Source: a virus
Virus record (IMG/VR): IMGVR_UViG_3300045988_114300
Span: 1 to 31,599 of that record
Direction: 5' to 3' (one strand)
Length of the DNA stretch: 31,599 nucleotides
Below the pieces are notes generated by a model. It was not told the origin of the DNA. It did not search any database and saw nothing but the letters and a program-made list of their open reading frames with translations. Positions 1,082 through 9,410 of the stretch are shown here, piece by piece. Positions within the stretch are counted from its first letter, which is position 1; every line of letters begins with the position of its first letter. Position numbers and translations under genes: made by a program.

Positions 1082-1444
1082 TTATTGCAGAAGCTCGTGA
1101 CTTCCTGCAATCATTGCTGCGAGCGTCTCAAGCGTCATTGTGACGTATGTATCACCAAGCGTTTTCTCTCCAACGCCTTTGCGCTTGTGGACTACTAAGC
1201 CAAACTCTGCGTCTGCGTTTCCTCGCTCCACTTCAGCTTCCTTGAGCCACTTTGGAAGTTCCATACGAGTACAGTTCTTGCACTCAACTACGACTGGAAG
1301 ACCTCGAAAGAACACTCCTGCGATGTCTCCTCGGTCGTGAATGCCTGCCGTGGTTCTGCGCTCAATGCCAGCTCCTAGACGTGCTGCGAGGTATTCTGCG
1401 ACTTGACGCTCAAACGCTGTACCTTTCTGCTTTTGTTTGCTCAT
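1082..1444 (-). CDS. Holliday-junction resolvase-like PD-(D/E)XK nuclease (Hjc-type)
   Basis: 120-aa ORF. GTAFERQVAEYL ... DIAGV ... VVECK matches the E...D...E-x-K pattern of Hjc-like resolvases. Typical phage position before the late genes. Confidence 0.55.
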   Translation of the reverse strand: MSKQKQKGTAFERQVAEYLAARLGAGIERRTTAGIHDRGDIAGVFFRGLPVVVECKNCTRMELPKWLKEAEVERGNADAEFGLVVHKRKGVGEKTLGDTYVTMTLETLAAMIAGSHELLQ

Positions 1445-2453: not shown

Positions 2454-2934
2454 CCGACATTTCGATTAAGTCGGTGAGCGTCCAAATCTTCTCAGATAGC
2501 TCCTCGCTAATATCTTCTTTGGCTAGAATGCATCTAATCTCGCTAACCAGCGATGCGATTGTTACTGGCTTTTTGTGGGTGATGTTGTTCGCAGGTTCTT
2601 TTGTATACACGGGTTCTGCGCCAGCTGCCAAAATAACCTCTGTGCTATTACCGCGCATCATGTATCCAGCGACTTCATACTTTATACCGTCGCCGATATA
2701 TACCGTATTCCCTACTCGGATAATCTCGCCGTCTTTGTCACGAGGTAGTTCAAGCATGTTAGACGTGTCGCAAAGTCCAAGAATGACGCTACATATTATG
2801 CAAAGGCTTTTGACATTTGACATTTCGTTTAGTTTTTCTTCACCTGTGAGAGCCTTAAAGAGCGTTGAGCTGGTAATGTACTCCGTGCTCTTCAACCTCT
2901 CAGCGATTTCTGCGCGCTCTTTTTTAGTTAGCAT
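2437..2934 (-). CDS. hypothetical early protein
   Basis: ORF 2437..2991. An internal start (MLTKKERAEIAERL) trims the overlap with the 2924..3685 gene. No recognisable domain. Confidence 0.4.
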   Translation of the reverse strand: MLTKKERAEIAERLKSTEYITSSTLFKALTGEEKLNEMSNVKSLCIICSVILGLCDTSNMLELPRDKDGEIIRVGNTVYIGDGIKYEVAGYMMRGNSTEVILAAGAEPVYTKEPANNITHKKPVTIASLVSEIRCILAKEDISEELSEKIWTLTDLIEMSGDNDD

Positions 2935-3685
2935 CTTTATCAGCTCCGTTAACCTTAATACCTGTGCAAATGAAGAATTTTTCCGCATCAAAATAAGGCA
3001 TCGATGTGATTGCTGCCTTGCTATCGTCGCTTAGGCTCTCCCACCAGGCTTGACGGTCTGCTTTCTCGAGGTATAAGAACCCGCCGGTAGTCTCATGCTC
3101 TGGGTGTGCTGCCTTTTCGTCGTCTGTCATATACTCGCTATATTTCCAGGTAAGACAGTCTGACGGTATACTGCAAAGCAAGCCATAAGCTCGCGATTGC
3201 CGGAAGTCACTAAAAGTAATGTCTGTTTGGTGGTCAAAAAGACGAACTGTAGGTTTGGTTGTATTACAGTAGCCGGAGTTACAGTCGCCGGAGTTCCAGT
3301 CGCCGGAGTTCCAGTTGCCGGAGTTCCAGTCGCCGGAGTTGCGGTTGCCGGAGTTGCGGTTGCCGGAGTTACAGTTGCCGGAGTTCCAGTCGCCGGAGTT
3401 ACAGAGACTACTTATTTCATCGGCAGTTAATTCACGCAGAATTTTAAGCTTGCGACCGACACTCTTATTTCCTTGCGTCTGTACTGCGCCGGTGACGTTT
3501 ACTTCGCAAATTCGGCAAGGCTTGCTGTAATAATCGTAGACGTCAACGCACTTCTTGCAGAAATGATAGCCGTTCTCGCATATCTTAACTTCACCCTCGA
3601 CAGTGTAGGTTTTGCCGACCTCGTACACAGTGTTATCGCCGTGCTTGGTCGTCATGTCTGACAAGAACGCTTTATAGCCTTTCAT
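2924..3685 (-). CDS. phage protein with Cys-rich N-terminal domain and 9 tandem pentapeptide (NSGxW/NSGNx) repeats
   Basis: 253-aa ORF. N-terminus MKGYKAFLSDMTTKHGDNTVYEVGKTYTVEGEVKICENGYHFC resembles a conserved phage N-domain (MKAYKGF...CENGFH). The central NSGDWNSGNCNSGNRNSGNRNSGDWNSGNWNSGDWNSGDCNSGYCN is encoded by a 15-bp tandem DNA repeat. Confidence 0.7.
   Translation of the reverse strand: MKGYKAFLSDMTTKHGDNTVYEVGKTYTVEGEVKICENGYHFCKKCVDVYDYYSKPCRICEVNVTGAVQTQGNKSVGRKLKILRELTADEISSLCNSGDWNSGNCNSGNRNSGNRNSGDWNSGNWNSGDWNSGDCNSGYCNTTKPTVRLFDHQTDITFSDFRQSRAYGLLCSIPSDCLTWKYSEYMTDDEKAAHPEHETTGGFLYLEKADRQAWWESLSDDSKAAITSMPYFDAEKFFICTGIKVNGADKDAN
3272..3406. repeat. about 9 near-perfect 15-bp tandem repeats (gccggagttNNNgtY) inside the CDS
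   Basis: Directly visible: gccggagttacagtc / gccggagttccagtc / gccggagttccagtt / gccggagttccagtc / gccggagttgcggtt x2 / gccggagttacagtt / gccggagttccagtc / gccggagttacagag. Confidence 0.95.
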
Positions 3686-4210: not shown

Positions 4211-4558
4211 TTAGCTGACTGAGTCAGCCAACCATCTATCCATCTCATCGCAGGTAATCATGTATCCTCGCTCTTGTCCTGCCGGCTTGATAAACTTGAG
4301 TGCTCCTGCCTTATGCTCGGCTCTGAGCATTGAGCCTGGAATACCTGAGTATTTAGAGGTTTGAGCAATCGTGTAAGCAAGCTGTGGTGGTAGTCCTGCA
4401 AGTACAGCTGCATTAAGTGAGCGAGAACCGTTGACGGTTCCCGTCTTCTCTGCGAGCTCTCTTTGAGCTTCTGCAGAAGCAATCATGAACTTCTCAAATA
4501 GCTTTGCGAGAACGCTCACGTCTGCGGTAATCTCTTTCTGCTTCGTTGATGTCATCAA
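4211..4558 (-). CDS. hypothetical early protein
   Basis: 115-aa ORF. No confident domain. Confidence 0.4.
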   Translation of the reverse strand: MMTSTKQKEITADVSVLAKLFEKFMIASAEAQRELAEKTGTVNGSRSLNAAVLAGLPPQLAYTIAQTSKYSGIPGSMLRAEHKAGALKFIKPAGQERGYMITCDEMDRWLADSVS

Positions 4559-4721
4559 TCCACCTCCAAACTGGGATAGTGATTGCTATATAGGGGAGAA
4601 GTCCTGGAATGCCACAGACTGAGAACGTGGCATAAATAAGAGCAAATAAAATGCCTGTCATAACTGAGCAGATGTAAGCTCCAACGGCAATCTTTTTGAA
4701 TTGAAGCGGTATACTCTTCAT
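4494..4721 (-). CDS. small membrane protein (two TM segments, basic C-terminal tail)
   Basis: 75 aa, hydrophobic AVGAYICSVMTGILFALIYATFSVCGIPGLLPYIAITIPVW. RBS GGAGG 7 nt upstream, embedded in the palindrome atgttca-N8-tgaacat. Confidence 0.45.
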   Translation of the reverse strand: MKSIPLQFKKIAVGAYICSVMTGILFALIYATFSVCGIPGLLPYIAITIPVWRWIDDINEAERDYRRRERSRKAI

Positions 4722-4744
4722 ATGTTCACCTCCAGATGAACATC

Positions 4745-4783
4745 GCCCTTACGCTATGCGACAGCGTGAGGGCAAACTTTTTT
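4745..4783 (+). terminator. terminator-like hairpin (11-bp stem gcccttacgct/agcgtgagggc, 7-nt loop) followed by aaacTTTTTT on the plus strand
   Basis: Seen in sequence. Its target is unclear because no plus-strand gene lies upstream. It may limit antisense transcription or be a 5'-UTR element of the leftward operon. Confidence 0.35.
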
Positions 4784-5027
4784 GATTGGGTTTTGCATAG
4801 CAACAAAGCGTCTATGCACGCTCTTCACGCTTTTGCGTGGCGGACTGTTAGGTCCTACACGGTTATCACTACGACCGCGCAACGTTATCTGGCTACCATT
4901 AGCCATTCACTTTATTTCAACAGGTACTCACCAACTCAAGAAGCTGAGCAAGTGTTGTTGTTTTCCCTGTAACGTTTTACGTCTATACGGTTTGCAAGGT
5001 ACGTGGTGCATGGGAAGTGGTTAGTCT

Positions 5028-5243
5028 TTAACACTTAATACGTGTTTTTCTACTTCCGATATCAAGCAGATAATCGGGAGTGCAGTTATAAAGCTTTGCA
5101 AGCTTCATAAGGTTTTCTGAAAGAGGAGTATTTTGACCAGATTCCCAGCGCAAAAGAGTATTTGCAGAGACACCAATCTTCTTTGCAGCTTCGTCTGCTG
5201 ACAAACCATGTCTTGCTCTTTCAGCCTTCATGTTCATTCGCAT
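5028..5243 (-). CDS. Cro-like XRE-family HTH regulator
   Basis: 71 aa. LSADEAAKKIGVSANTLLRWESGQNTP is a canonical HTH_XRE. Divergent from the cI-like gene, with RBS AAAGGAGG. Confidence 0.85.
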   Translation of the reverse strand: MRMNMKAERARHGLSADEAAKKIGVSANTLLRWESGQNTPLSENLMKLAKLYNCTPDYLLDIGSRKTRIKC

Positions 5244-5264
5244 TATGAGTACCTCCTTTCATTT

Positions 5265-5335
5265 ACACGTTTTCTGTGTATCAATGATGTAGATAATACA
5301 CACAAAATGTGTTTGATTCAACACAAAAAGTGTGT
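5265..5335. promoter_or_regulatory. genetic-switch operator cluster: three ACAC-N7-GTGT inverted repeats (5265-5279, 5298-5312, 5321-5335)
   Basis: ACACgttttctGTGT, ACACacaaaatGTGT, ACACaaaaagtGTGT lie between the divergent cro-like and cI-like genes. Centre spacing is 33 bp and 23 bp. Confidence 0.6.
5293..5321 (-). promoter_or_regulatory. candidate early leftward promoter (minus strand -35 TTGAAT, 17-bp spacer, -10 TATTAT) for the cro-like gene
   Basis: The minus-strand reading is TTGAATcaaacacattttgtgtgTATTAT. Operators O2 and O3 overlap the spacer and -35 region. Confidence 0.5.
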
Positions 5336-5369
5336 AATTATTGTGAAGACAATGCAATACGTGTAATTG
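5313..5369 (+). promoter_or_regulatory. candidate maintenance promoter(s) for cI (TTGATT-17-TAATTA and/or TTGTGA-17-TAATTG)
   Basis: Weak sigma70-like hexamers that overlap the operators. Confidence 0.3.
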
Positions 5370-5382
5370 AAAGTGAGCGATA

Positions 5383-6015
5383 ATGAAATATCAGATTGCT
5401 GAAGCACGTAAGCTTAGAGACATTACACAATCTGAATTAGCTGAGAAAATGGGAACTACCCAGCAAACAATTCAAAGATATGAGACTAATCAAGTTAATA
5501 TCCGCATGGATAAGATGATTGAGATGTCAGAGATATTGAATGTAAGTTTGGCTTATCTCCTTGGAATGTCTAGTAGTCCAGAATTATCAGAAGTTTCTGA
5601 CATGGTTCCTGTCCCACTTCTAGGTTCAATTGCTGCTGGGACTCCTATTGAGATGATTAACATTGATGAGACGTATGACATCCCAGCAGATATTCACGAC
5701 AGATACCCGCAAGCTTTTCTTTTGAAGGTTGTAGGCGATTCTATGAACCGCGTACTACCAAATGGTTGCTATGCGCTCATTAACCCTTGCCAAGAAGCGT
5801 CTAAGTCTATGAAGGCATATGCAGTGTGTGTGAATGGCTTTGACGCAACTATTAAGCGTGTGAGACCACTATCAAATGGCTACGAGCTCATACCAGACAG
5901 CATAGATCATACTTACAGACCGCAGGTGTTTGACTTCAATGAGATTGACACACAGCCCGTCTCAATCATTGGCGAGGTTGTGTGGTATTTAGTACCTTTT
6001 GGATTTGAGATTTAG
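5383..6015 (+). CDS. CI-like phage repressor (N-terminal HTH_XRE plus C-terminal S24 LexA-like peptidase)
   Basis: ITQSELAEKMGTTQQTIQRYETNQ helix-turn-helix, Ala-Gly cleavage site (SIAAGTPI), catalytic Ser in VGDSMN, Lys in TIKRV. Confidence 0.9.
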   Translation: MKYQIAEARKLRDITQSELAEKMGTTQQTIQRYETNQVNIRMDKMIEMSEILNVSLAYLLGMSSSPELSEVSDMVPVPLLGSIAAGTPIEMINIDETYDIPADIHDRYPQAFLLKVVGDSMNRVLPNGCYALINPCQEASKSMKAYAVCVNGFDATIKRVRPLSNGYELIPDSIDHTYRPQVFDFNEIDTQPVSIIGEVVWYLVPFGFEI

Positions 6016-6046
6016 GAGTAAGTTCAACATATAAAGGTTTAAGGAA

Positions 6047-6835
6047 TTGGAAAGGTTTAGAGAAATGGCTGTTTATCAAGACAAAGCGAGAGACCGCATC
6101 AAAAAAGGTTTGAGACGCATGACAACAATTGTCGAAAAGGGACGCGCTGAAGACTTCAAAGAAGCTGACACTCGTAAAATTGTCTCAGACATTCTGTGCG
6201 AGTACCTTGGTTGGGATAGATTTGACAATGTCACAGCTGAACAGATGATTGGCTCCCGCTTTGCTGACTATGTTGTTCGCACATCAGATGAAGAGGTATT
6301 TGTCGTTGAGGTTAAGCAAATTGGGCTTAAGCTCAAGGAAACACACCTTAATCAAGCGCGTCAATATGCTGTTGATGAGGGTATTGACTGGATTATTCTT
6401 ACCAACGGTGATGACTGGCAAGTCTATCGCACTAAGCTCGAAGGCAAAATCCCTGTCACAAAGCTAGTATTCAGAGTCACTATTTCCGACAAGGAAACAG
6501 CTCCAGCACAGAAAGCAGAGCTGCTTTACCTGCTCTCTGAAGAAGCGCATCGTAAGAATGAGATTGATGACTATTATCAGAGACGCATTGCTCTTTCTGG
6601 AGAGAACCTTGCAGATCATATCATCTCAACCGAAGTCATTAATAAGCTGCGAGTTGCTATCAAGAACACCACAGGGCAGAACCTGAAGAATTCAGAAATC
6701 GCAGAAGCTCTTGTAGCACGCTTATTCTTGCCTGAAAAGGTGACAGATGACAGTCGTAAGGCAATCGCAAAAATGAAAAAAGATGAGCGTAAGAAGCCTG
6801 TAGCAAAGACAAAAGCTGCGTCTGAGGAAGAGTAG
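6047..6835 (+). CDS. HsdR-N-like (type I restriction enzyme R N-terminal / Mrr-like) PD-(D/E)XK nuclease-domain protein with charged C-terminal tail
   Basis: ILCEYLGW ... RFADYVV ... VFVVEVKQ ... QARQYA ... WIILTNGDDWQVY matches the HSDR_N motif series (E..D-YVL..-VEAK..Q-Y..ILTNG-W-Y). Co-oriented with cI, so presumably expressed in lysogens. Confidence 0.6.
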   Translation: MERFREMAVYQDKARDRIKKGLRRMTTIVEKGRAEDFKEADTRKIVSDILCEYLGWDRFDNVTAEQMIGSRFADYVVRTSDEEVFVVEVKQIGLKLKETHLNQARQYAVDEGIDWIILTNGDDWQVYRTKLEGKIPVTKLVFRVTISDKETAPAQKAELLYLLSEEAHRKNEIDDYYQRRIALSGENLADHIISTEVINKLRVAIKNTTGQNLKNSEIAEALVARLFLPEKVTDDSRKAIAKMKKDERKKPVAKTKAASEEE

Positions 6836-6841
6836 TAAAAC

Positions 6842-6881
6842 AAAAAAAGCCCTCTGAGTCCGCCAAGACAAATCAGAGGGC
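6842..6881 (-). terminator. hairpin (9-bp GC-rich stem gccctctga/tcagagggc, 15-nt loop) with a U-tract on the minus-strand transcript
   Basis: Plus strand reads AAAAAAA-gccctctga-N15-tcagagggc. The T-run is present only for leftward transcription, and the long loop lowers confidence. Confidence 0.35.
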
Positions 6882-6913
6882 AACCTCCATCTCGTTAGGA
6901 AGGTATATACATT

Positions 6914-8020
6914 ATGCCACGTAAACGTTCTTCATGGGGTTCAAATCAGTCAATGGGTCCTGGGAAACGCAGAATCCGCTATATGGCTGACACGGGAGAC
7001 GGTAGAGGGTTCACAAGACACTCTGAGACCGTCTATGGAACACGCAAACAAGCTGATGAAGTATTAGCGCAAAGACGCATAGAACACAGCCAAGACAAGC
7101 CTGTGCCAACGCTCAGGCAGGCTTATGAAGCGTGGTACCTTCCAGAGTTGCAAGAACAACTGAAGACAGGTGAACTCTCTCAGAACTCATATAAGAACTA
7201 TGTTAGTAGATGGACAAGGCATATAGACCCTATTTGGGGAAGCTTGCCAATCACGGCAATTAAACCTCTTGGAATCCAGGAATGGCTGCTCACTATGACG
7301 CAGGGAATCGCTGAGACATCGCTTATGTTGCTGCGTAAAATCCTCGATAAGTGCGTCATGCTTGAGCTGCTACCAGCAAACCCTGCAAGCGTTACGTATA
7401 GGATGCCTAAGCAATCGAATAAGCGTGATACGGATGTTTACTCGCTTAGTGAACTTTGCGAGGTTTTAGAAGCTCTACGTGGCTCTGTTGCTTATATCCC
7501 AGCTATTCTCTGTGGCATTGGTTCATGCCGTGTTGGTGAGTCATTAGGCGTGAGAAAAGAAAACATCATGTCTTATAAATATGATGGCATGACGCTTGCC
7601 ATTATTGACATTGATACACAAGTAGATAATAACGGAGAAGTACTAAACAAGCTAAAGACGCCACAAAGCAAGAGACCTATAGTCATTCCAGAGCCATGGT
7701 CAAAAGACATTCTCTCAATTGATACAGACTGGCTCACTGATACAGGCTATGGGAAGCCAGTAAGCCAGTAGGTAGTGCGTTATGTATGGAATAGGCTTCT
7801 CAAAGAAAAGAATCTTAAATACATTCCATTTAGAAATCTGCGTAATTCTTGGCGCACTATCATGCGTTGGGAGTTAGGTATAGACTCTGACTATGTTGAG
7901 AAGATGATGGGTCATGCTGGAAAGGGCGTTGGTGAAATACACTATGATCGTCCGCAATGGAGACAGTTTGCGGATGTTGTAGGAGAAACATGGGTTAGAT
8001 ACATGGCAAAGAATAATTAA
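6914..8020 (+). pseudogene. int: tyrosine integrase interrupted by a single in-frame TAG (7769-7771); two ORFs 6914..7771 and 7775..8020 in the same frame
   Basis: The N-terminal ORF carries the arm-binding domain and box I (CRVGESLGV, LKTPQSKRPIVIP). The downstream ORF carries box II (FRNLRNSWRT) and the Tyr region (MGHAGKGVGEIHYDRP). 6914 and 7775 are the same residue mod 3, giving ...KPVSQ*VVRYVW. Confidence 0.7.
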
Positions 8021-8330
8021 TAGTTAGGACATTTTAGGACACGGACAGACATTATATAGTATTTTACCTGGTCTTTTATTCTATCCCCAATACAGGTATA
8101 GTATTGTCTAGTAATGTTTGTATGTTTTATACTATAGTTTACCTGCGATTATGTAAAACGTTAGTTCGCTAAATTGGTGTATTTTATGGAATTAGGACAC
8201 GCAAAGGACACAAAGCAACGTACCTGTTTTGCGCTTTATATTAGCTAGTTTGTGCCTACGTTTCACCAGTTAAACGGCTTGTTGTAAGGCATTTTAAGAC
8301 ACGTAAATTGTGAGTTGGAGTATTTACCCA
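8021..8330. other. putative attP region: AT-rich, TTAGGACA-like direct repeats (8024, 8034, 8192, 8204, 8294) and TTTACCTG repeats (8065, 8141)
   Basis: Lies between int and the end of the late operon. The same-orientation repeats flank a central AT-rich segment, the usual layout of arm-type integrase binding sites. Confidence 0.4.
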
Positions 8331-8331
8331 T

Positions 8332-8364
8332 GAAAAAAGCCCCTCTCGTCAAAACGAGAGGGGT
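8332..8364 (-). terminator. rho-independent terminator after the lysin gene (stem gcccctctcgt/acgagaggggt, loop caaa, U-run)
   Basis: The minus-strand transcript reads ccctctcgttttgacgagaggggCTTTTTT immediately after the lysin TAA stop. Confidence 0.8.
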
Positions 8365-8369
8365 AAATA

Positions 8370-9410
8370 TTACTTAATTCCAGCGATGTATCCATCGTCA
8401 TTGGTTGTGACTGTGATGTCGCCTGTGAGAAGCTTTCCTTCCCTATCGAAGGCACAAATATTGTCTGCTCCGACTTCGTAAAGGCAATCTTCAACTCGTG
8501 AGCCATCGGAGCGTAGATAGTACCAGTCATTATCTAGCTTAAGCCAGCCAGTAATCATGCGGCCTGTCTCGTCAAGGTAATAACGCTTGCCGTCACGCTC
8601 CTGCCAGCCAGTCGCCATGCGCCCGTCAGAGCCTAGCAAATACCAGCTGTCGTTGTATGTGAGCCACTTATCAGCTTCAAGTGCGCCACTATCGTCGAAG
8701 TGCCACCAGCATTTCTCCGAGCCGTCCCAGCTAGCATGAACCCAGCCCGTGAGCATCCAGCCAGACTCGTTGAAGTAGTACCACTTCATGCCTACACGAT
8801 ACCAGCCGACGGCATACTCGCTTGATGACTCGCCTGTCTGATACCACCAACTACCCTTACCGTCAGTATGCCAGCCAATCTCAGAGCTTGAGCGCGCACC
8901 AGTCATAACTTCATACCAGTAACATACACGCTCCATATAGTGAGCGTTCTGAGAGCCGGCTAGCTCGCCAGGGCAAGCGGTTGCCACGATCTGTTTGTGC
9001 GGTCGGACGTTGCCACCCCAACGCGGATAACCAAGTCCGTACTTGATCAAGAGAGCAGCCACAAGATGTGCGCCGCTTTCCTGCGTGGTCTCTGATACCG
9101 TCCAAGGGTTCGCCTGGTCGTTAGCGTGCTCGATAGAGATACTGCGCTGGTTTTCTTCCCAGCGACCAACGGCATAAGCCGTGTCACTCTCGTAGACGTG
9201 CTGCGCGATTGCTCCCTCATTATCTACTGAATAATGCGCACTGACTTCACCATTAGCTGACCACATTGCCGCGATGCTATAAGGCGAAGAGCCAACAGAA
9301 GCCTCATGATGGACAGCAATGTACTCAACCTTATGACCACCGCGTCCTGAAGCGTATGAAGTTGTAGGTGCCCAGATATCCGCAGTAATCTCGCCCGAGA
9401 AATCAGCCAT
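8370..9410 (-). CDS. endolysin: N-acetylmuramoyl-L-alanine amidase (Amidase_2/PGRP) with C-terminal CW_binding_1 (choline-binding-type) repeats
   Basis: Zn ligands VHHEAS ... H ... ATACPGE. C-terminal aromatic repeats GWYRVGMKWYYFNESGWMLTGW, WYLLGSDGRMATGWQERDGKRYYLDETGRMITGWLKLDNDWYYL. Confidence 0.9.
   Translation of the reverse strand: MADFSGEITADIWAPTTSYASGRGGHKVEYIAVHHEASVGSSPYSIAAMWSANGEVSAHYSVDNEGAIAQHVYESDTAYAVGRWEENQRSISIEHANDQANPWTVSETTQESGAHLVAALLIKYGLGYPRWGGNVRPHKQIVATACPGELAGSQNAHYMERVCYWYEVMTGARSSSEIGWHTDGKGSWWYQTGESSSEYAVGWYRVGMKWYYFNESGWMLTGWVHASWDGSEKCWWHFDDSGALEADKWLTYNDSWYLLGSDGRMATGWQERDGKRYYLDETGRMITGWLKLDNDWYYLRSDGSRVEDCLYEVGADNICAFDREGKLLTGDITVTTNDDGYIAGIK

Follow-up and report, generated by a model that had tools for sequence, protein, structure and literature searches.

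We found that a stand-alone nuclease gene is optional cargo, a 'moron', in a sharply bounded and hypervariable slot between the repressor and integrase genes of a temperate siphophage of Lancefieldella/Atopobium, an oral and gut bacterium, and that this gene is maintained by selection. The encoded protein has the nuclease fold of the HsdR and type IIG restriction enzymes. Its location makes it a candidate for a nuclease that is expressed in lysogeny and, as a single protein, guards the lysogen from incoming DNA, a reading to which we give an even chance. Slots that follow the same logic are already known from other phages.

The stretch of DNA that was analysed (the window, 31,599 nucleotides) reads as a complete temperate siphophage genome; its ORFs include terminase, portal, minor capsid, amidase endolysin and DnaB-like helicase genes, and an attP-like region was detected. 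Close copies of the nuclease occur in Lancefieldella parvula and Atopobium genomes and MAGs and also in IMG/VR contigs of about 30 kb, and a megablast search of window nucleotides 4500-8500 against GenBank phages returned zero matches. An earlier note on this DNA had placed the gene between cI and int, and the Pfam domains of both flanking genes, those of a cI-type repressor and a tyrosine integrase, agree with that description (Table 1). The integrase gene is broken by an in-frame TAG at 7769-7771; because relatives carry CAG at the same codon, we take the TAG to be a plain nonsense change or an error, and stop-codon recoding was dropped as its meaning.

The + strand ORF at 6047..6835 contains every motif listed for it in the earlier note, namely EYLGW, DYVV (as ADYVV), VEVK, QARQYA and ILTNGDDWQVY. 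We consider it a real gene because the protein collection contains 239 homologues, many of them 60-98% identical, because phrog_17239 ('unknown function') is matched over the full length (3.5e-106), and because dN/dS in this reading frame is about 0.018. Its start had been put at TTG 6047, giving 262 residues, and this had to be corrected: translation almost certainly begins at ATG 6065, with the TTG probably unused, since nearly all aligned homologues have the N-terminus MAVYQ, the alignment to phrog_17239 opens at residue 7 of the 262-aa ORF, and a GAAAGG motif conserved in an alignment of 13 loci lies 9 nt 5' of this ATG. With this start the protein has 256 residues, to which residue numbers refer below, and the distance from the cI stop codon becomes 49 nt in place of the 31 bp first given.

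The nuclease gene lies directly 3' of the repressor gene in the same orientation, and a terminator scan predicted no terminator between the two. The leader that moves along with the gene measures only about 36-49 nt, the homology block of most carriers beginning at 6019-6029, and is too short for a full promoter plus UTR. Given this short leader and the uninterrupted spacer, co-transcription with cI, as the earlier note had proposed, is the economical reading and is probable. The transcript covering both genes probably originates in the cro–cI switch region, which holds three to four ACAC-N7-GTGT palindromes (about 5265-5279, 5298-5312 and 5321-5335). A consensus promoter scan of this region found a promoter-like site for the - strand (5321-5293) and, at its threshold, none for the + strand, where we infer a promoter. 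At the other end of the gene, the hairpin previously noted before int is real; its sequence is that of a canonical - strand terminator, because a run of A (6838-6848) precedes it and a run of T is missing after it on the + strand, for which it would be at best a U-less hairpin. A second, shorter terminator-like site was placed by the scan on the - strand (6889-6874), overlapping the right arm of this hairpin, and other carriers of the nuclease gene have different hairpins at the equivalent place.

Table 1. Features of the window around the nuclease gene, and genes found in the same slot of related phages (for the latter, the contigs are given in place of coordinates). Residue numbers are those of the 256-aa protein.
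Feature	Position	Strand	Evidence
cro-like HTH regulator, divergent from the repressor	5028..5243	-	Pfam HTH_3, 7.4e-16
cro–cI switch region with repeated ACAC-N7-GTGT operator-like palindromes	5244..5382	.	inverted and direct repeats
cI/LexA-like repressor, 210 aa; left border of the cargo slot	5383..6015	+	Pfam HTH_3 and Peptidase_S24, 7.9e-16 and 8.4e-16
Leader belonging to the cassette, with conserved GAAAGG ribosome-binding site at 6050-6055	6016..6064	+	alignment of 13 loci
Nuclease gene, 256 aa, start most probably ATG 6065	6065..6835	+	homologues, PHROG match, dN/dS
PD-(D/E)XK core, residues 33-139	6161..6481	+
Key codons E33, D35, D68, E82	6161-6163, 6167-6169, 6266-6268, 6308-6310	+
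Key codons K84, Q97, Y101	6314-6316, 6353-6355, 6365-6367	+
All-helical C-terminal domain, residues 147-243; R196 invariant	6503..6793	+	AlphaFold2 helices; hhalign
Lys/Arg-rich then acidic tail, predicted disordered	6794..6832	+	pLDDT below 50, residues 246-256
Hairpin at the right border of the slot	6849..6881	.	dG -24.2 kcal/mol, z -3.95
Tyrosine integrase; right border of the slot	6914..8020	+	Pfam Phage_int_SAM_3 and Phage_integrase
Slot cargo: PDC-S19 (PADLOC candidate; DUF3644 and EC042_2821 nuclease-like)	L075		5e-134
Slot cargo: PDC-S42-like (PADLOC candidate), 304 aa	L072, L076, L086		4.6e-18
Slot cargo: weak MqsR-like ORF and MqsA/Panacea protein	L069		Pfam MqsR 6e-4, below cut-off
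Slot cargo: lipoproteins	L068, L081; also L084/L085 (integrase about 70% identical)
Slot cargo: small membrane (TM) proteins	L073, L074, L080
Slot cargo: unknown 204-aa protein	L090; also L082 (integrase 85% identical)
Equivalent position: AbiD	L087, L089 (more distant phages, integrase 34% identical)		1.1e-41

The slot is best seen against a set of 16 sister contigs whose integrase is 94-97% identical and whose upstream DNA could be read; the nuclease gene is present in four of them. When the window is compared with five sister phages (L068, L069, L072, L075 and L081), homology ends at 6014-6022, at the cI stop codon (6013-6015), and is back at 6839-6859, shortly after the nuclease stop codon (6833-6835), so that the gene shows the presence and absence with sharp borders looked for in a repressor-linked accessory gene. 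In its place the sisters carry PDC-S19, PDC-S42-like proteins, an MqsR/MqsA-like pair, lipoproteins or membrane proteins, which bears out the suggestion in the earlier note that this interval is a hotspot for variable cargo. Among carriers the nuclease forms a discrete homology block, at about 6021-6849, with unrelated flanks: it is 96-100% identical despite upstream repressors that are 26-74% identical or belong to a 102-aa HTH-only type, and downstream lies either this integrase or HicA/HicB together with an ORF of 155 aa and a 424-aa integrase on the other strand. At three further loci (L022-L024) the nuclease gene is cut down to its first 23 codons and adjoins a membrane-anchored RNase_T/BRCT gene and HicAB.

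The gene also recurs behind repressors elsewhere. In other Coriobacteriia prophages, proteins 59-73% identical to the nuclease are encoded 3-14 nt after an S24 repressor, in a cI(S24)–nuclease–integrase order whose integrase is either a tyrosine enzyme, of varying size, or a large serine recombinase, and in several lineages the stop codon of cI and the start codon of the nuclease nearly overlap. The repressor–nuclease–integrase order is also seen in Thermus phage Riverbug, whose homologue is 40% identical over the nuclease core and starts 5 nt after a LexA-like regulator. An IMG/VR scan with a Riverbug-type profile, using home-made HMMs of modest sensitivity, recovered 107 loci, 62 of them full-length, and the GC content of these viral loci ranged from 0.32 to 0.60. 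A repressor-like ORF was directly upstream in 17 of the 62 full-length viral loci, at a distance of 17-57 nt in 12 of the 17, and an integrase was found within 3.5 kb in 19 of the 62. In their position directly 3' of a prophage repressor, co-oriented with it and within a mosaic hotspot, lambda rexAB and BstA are the nearest likeness, although neither has any sequence or domain relationship to the nuclease. BstA is encoded 3' of prophage repressors, with 21% of its homologues found independently of prophages (PMC8585504); a mostly prophage-linked distribution with a minority of independent copies is also what we see in the nuclease family.

At the protein level, the nuclease can be assigned firmly to the HsdR/type IIG fold. 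Pfam HSDR_N_2 (PF13588) matched with 30.6 bits against a gathering cut-off of 25 (E 3.9e-07), the precomputed domains of homologues include PF13588 and in many cases PF04313 as well, and the DpnII, MmeI_N and TnsA_N families gave weak sub-threshold matches. Of the description 'HsdR-N/Mrr-like' in the earlier note, the HsdR-N PD-(D/E)XK part stands and the Mrr part falls away, no Mrr catalytic or N-terminal domain being found among Pfam matches at E <= 1; nor did the 256-aa protein match a helicase family in Pfam. A search of NCBIfam gave nothing, PDB sequence searches with the protein and with the family profile matched no chain and gave nothing meaningful, and a BFVD fold search gave no informative match. 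An AlphaFold2 model built on 20 homologues (mean pLDDT 85.7) predicts that a long N-terminal helix precedes a core of the order helix-strand-strand-strand-helix-strand, which is followed by a beta-hairpin, a C-terminal domain of seven helices and a disordered tail, and thus contains the alpha-beta-beta-beta-alpha-beta core fold of PD-(D/E)XK enzymes.

Loss of the catalytic residues on alignment, which had been named as a result that would count against the proposed defence nuclease, is not what we observed. E33, D35, D68, E82, K84, Q97 and Y101 are invariant in 24 sequences drawn from two subfamilies, that of the Coriobacteriia and a second one, which share only ~25-30% identity, and the arrangement D-x13-E-x-K followed by QxxxY is the RecB-family motif set. 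The fold assignment is solid and the active site looks intact because these residues are invariant in both subfamilies and make up this motif set; the protein is presumably an active nuclease. In EcoR124I HsdR, mutation of Q179 and Y183 in the QxxxY motif slows or abolishes cleavage, and efficient cleavage needs the motif (PMC2475608). The two subfamilies are homologous over their full length, including the helical domain and the basic tail (hhalign probability 100%, E 1e-41, 251 columns). The helical C-terminal domain is conserved family-wide and is similar to the connector found behind the nuclease of type IIG enzymes. The long Lys/Glu-rich tail that the earlier note had described is present and predicted to be disordered, and the alignment shows a basic tail of similar kind in most family members.

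We conclude that the protein does not belong to the type I, type IIG or Mrr-type enzymes, as it lacks the additional domains or partners that define these classes. With the N-terminal endonuclease domain of HsdR (EcoR124I; Vibrio vulnificus fragment 3h1t; PF13588/PF04313) it shares D-x13-E-x-K and then QxxxY, but it lacks SF2 motor domains, HsdM and HsdS, has cI and int as neighbours, and at 256 aa has a conserved helical C-domain and a basic tail of its own. As the earlier note had stated, no helicase or methylase partner is present: among the 20 other window ORFs scanned, and adjoining the nuclease gene, there was no methyltransferase or restriction-type motor, and the sole helicase-family match in the window was the DnaB-like replication gene at 27661..28614. 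The type IIG/IIL enzymes (BpuSI, DrdV, MmeI-like) share the order of an N-terminal nuclease and then a helical connector. Consistent with this, PADLOC REase_MTase_IIG matched residues 69-208 of the 262-aa ORF (63-202 in the 256-aa numbering) at 2e-8, a match that spans profile positions 70-218, so that only the first 218 of 1011 positions are covered, and phrog_14719, a profile of 833 positions, matched residues 19-222. What the nuclease lacks relative to type IIG/IIL enzymes are the fused methyltransferase and target-recognition domains, which there provide self-protection and sequence specificity; relative to the Mrr-type type IV enzymes, it lacks the Mrr catalytic and N-terminal winged-helix domains. 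Some homologues bear the designation 'type IV', which is just the name given by the source.

The nuclease is best described as an uncharacterised member of an annotated family, with Pfam, PHROG and NCBI names. Apart from the partial REase_MTase_IIG match, no single-gene defence model, known or candidate, in PADLOC-DB v2.0.0 was matched by the protein, and the Riverbug homologue had zero PADLOC matches. A literature search found no functional study of HSDR_N_2/PF13588 or PF04313 nucleases in defence or prophages, or of Atopobium prophages. PDC-S19, found in the same slot of a sister phage, is likewise a single-gene candidate with a nuclease fold, but it belongs to another family with another domain architecture and is itself a computational candidate alone. 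Three points are unusual in the present gene, namely very strong constraint, recurrence behind repressors in distant phyla, and the problem of how its product would spare its own cell.

Across 29 close copies (403 pairs), the median dN/dS of the nuclease is 0.018, with dS averaging about 0.7, compared to 0.06-0.18 for most other slot cargo and 0.05-0.13 for the neighbouring integrase, so that purifying selection on it is 3-10 times stronger than on most other slot cargo genes. The constraint is evenly spread over the protein, and no stretch of conserved synonymous sites stands out; selection this strong and even is not what an arms-race gene usually shows. As third-position and synonymous diversity is uniform along the gene, no embedded self-immunity element is evident, and a DNA element of this kind, like the aba of BstA, was dropped as a candidate.

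The family also extends well beyond prophages. A profile search of 1.84 billion representatives returned 495 clusters at E <= 1e-30. Three Coriobacteriia copies are in chromosomal contexts without phage genes nearby, and one of these three adjoins the PADLOC candidate PDC-S31. Three full-length proteobacterial homologues (Lysobacter, Stenotrophomonas and other Proteobacteria) are solitary genes amid housekeeping genes, as in a Lysobacter-type genome in which the homologue lies between peptidase U32 genes and fabB/fabA, and on the strength of these solitary copies the family may have a conserved cellular role. SOS regulation in Xanthomonadales, which would parallel the link to LexA-like repressors, was considered and dropped, there being no match upstream of two proteobacterial copies (L060 and L063) to TTAG-N6-TACTA, which we take to be the Xanthomonadales SOS box.

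A possible, if doubtful, explanation is therefore a conserved role in nucleic-acid processing (repair, recombination, or the processing of ends or intermediates) that serves cells and temperate phages alike, in which case the prophage copy would aid maintenance of the lysogen or prophage, or induction, and not exclusion. The breadth of the family, its solitary full-length members in proteobacterial housekeeping neighbourhoods, the extreme and uniform purifying selection, the RecB-family motif set and the lack of a defence-catalogue match all fit such a role. It sits less well with the dispensability of the gene, which is missing from 12 of the 16 sisters with the same integrase, where defence-type genes are found instead, and with chromosomal contexts that are non-syntenic between genera. 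Likewise, the two proteobacterial copies searched lack an upstream SOS box, and the tight operon link to repressors is more in keeping with expression specific to lysogeny.

We consider it improbable that the gene encodes a toxin-like or addiction nuclease that kills cells losing the prophage, or an abortive-infection effector that acts on host DNA once triggered. A nuclease without a protective methylase could behave in this way, and toxin–antitoxin pairs (MqsRA-like, HicAB) do occupy the same slot. However, no conserved antitoxin gene neighbours the nuclease, the repressors upstream of it being 26-74% identical or of a different type alongside a nuclease that is 96-100% identical; the chromosomal copies, moreover, are solitary.

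Less probable still is a part in the lysogeny switch or in integration and excision, for example as a directionality factor or a co-regulator of LexA-like repressors. The position between repressor and integrase is conserved across phyla, and the near-overlap of the cI stop and nuclease start codons in several lineages would suit such a part. The pattern of presence and absence largely refutes it: universal conservation with the integration machinery, which the earlier note had named as grounds for giving up a defence reading, is not found, the gene being missing from most sisters with the same repressor and integrase, occurring alongside integrases of both the tyrosine and the serine class and alongside repressors of unrelated types, and having chromosomal copies without phage genes nearby. 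Equally hard to credit is a catalytically dead nuclease fold that only binds DNA or serves as a scaffold, for which the basic tail and the helical domain could provide contacts to DNA or partner proteins, because D68, E82, K84, Q97, Y101 and E33 are all invariant across two subfamilies at ~25-30% identity.

If the nuclease does protect the lysogen, the reading that we prefer, transcription from the repressor promoter would read through into its gene in the lysogen, in the manner of lambda rexAB and BstA, and the protein would cut incoming foreign DNA and so shield the lysogen from superinfection. Since a cognate methylase is absent, the cell's own DNA would have to be spared by one of three routes: the structure of the substrate (free DNA ends or replication intermediates), a dependence on base modification, or activation only upon infection. 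RecB-family QxxxY nucleases typically act at DNA ends, and for this reason we favour an end- or structure-dependent attack, which may be directed at free ends or replication intermediates of the injected DNA.

A broader proposal, which we put forward as speculative and think unlikely in its entirety, is that stand-alone RecB/HsdR-type nucleases, which form roughly 500 clusters (at 50% identity) across phyla, constitute one system that temperate phages, those of Actinomycetota and Deinococcota among others, have placed under the repressor promoter again and again. Such a nuclease would provide immunity with one protein and without methylation, telling self from non-self by the topology or structure of DNA, for example by the free ends of injected linear DNA. 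The constraint on the protein would then reflect a generic substrate, and the solitary copies in chromosomes would be forms of this system resident in bacteria.

The phages of Lancefieldella offer a natural experiment, in that their repressor and integrase are the same and only the cargo within the two sharp borders varies, and their slot could be searched for more defence candidates of oral and gut Coriobacteriia, for which we know of no phage–host model. Should the family have a conserved role in DNA processing, the solitary chromosomal copies of Proteobacteria would provide a genetically tractable route to it. Should the nuclease prove protective, a very compact nuclease without partners would join the prophage-borne immunity genes, and how a type I/IIG catalytic domain without a methylase spares its own cell would become a concrete question.

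The nuclease gene is under strong purifying constraint, with a dN/dS of about 0.018 at a dS of about 0.7. This ratio is 3-10 times below that of most other cargo genes occupying the slot in the related phages recovered by the integrase search (L068-L090), and the adjacent integrase also has a higher dN/dS than the nuclease gene. The nuclease alleles are old and tightly constrained rather than the product of a recent sweep. In three related phages, only the first 23 codons of the gene are left, with a membrane-anchored RNase_T (DEDDh) exonuclease carrying a BRCT domain upstream and HicA/HicB downstream, an arrangement that looks like a cassette-replacement footprint.

At the left edge of the slot, a ~41-nt segment at the very 3′ end of the repressor gene is kept in phages whose repressor is otherwise of a different type: the corresponding stretch of one such locus, L072, is 97.6% identical to that of the window, and in another, L085, the last 12 residues are conserved with the window repressor. 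This conserved 3′ end may represent a recombination junction. At the right edge, an A-run stands before the hairpin 3′ of the nuclease gene, and no T-run comes after this hairpin; as judged from its sequence, the hairpin would stop leftward (- strand) transcription arriving through int, and termination here would guard the repressor operon against antisense read-through.

The int frame itself is broken by an in-frame TAG. Four sister phages carry CAG (Gln) in its place, so the window integrase is cut off before its C-terminal catalytic part, whether by nonsense mutation or through an error in the sequencing. Beyond int, direct repeats of the TTAGGACAC type at 8034, 8192 and 8294 (n=3) resemble integrase arm sites.

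Features of the cargo slot, its surroundings and related loci
Feature	Location	Strand	Remark
Repressor 3′ end	window 5975-6015; L072 2915-2955; L085 2922-2957
Nuclease gene	window 6065-6835	+
Hairpin with preceding A-run	window 6838-6881
int	window 6914..8020	+	TAG at 7769-7771
attP-like region	window 8021-8369		between int and endolysin; low GC (0.36)
Strong terminator	window 8340-8363	-	inside attP-like region
Early-region genes	window 1082-1444, 1441-1896, 2924-3685	-	PDDEXK_15, DUF4406, DUF7666 proteins
23-codon remnant loci	L022 4853-6120; L024 4880-6374
Full-length nuclease homologues	L060 6001-6798; L063 6001-6810; L065 6001-6813		Lysobacter-, Stenotrophomonas-, other Proteobacteria-type genomes
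DUF2971 protein gene	L043 6525-7535	-

The early region of the window encodes a second PD-(D/E)XK protein, PDDEXK_15, which is unrelated to the nuclease, and its DUF7666 protein contains a run of pentapeptide repeats (NSGxW/N).

Full-length homologues of the nuclease also occur at three proteobacterial loci, where they are solitary, lie among housekeeping genes behind long upstream intergenic regions and have no phage genes nearby. One chromosomal Coriobacteriia copy is adjoined by a divergent gene for a DUF2971 protein that matches the PADLOC candidate PDC-S31 (8.8e-18), which hints that this nuclease copy may belong to a small defence islet.
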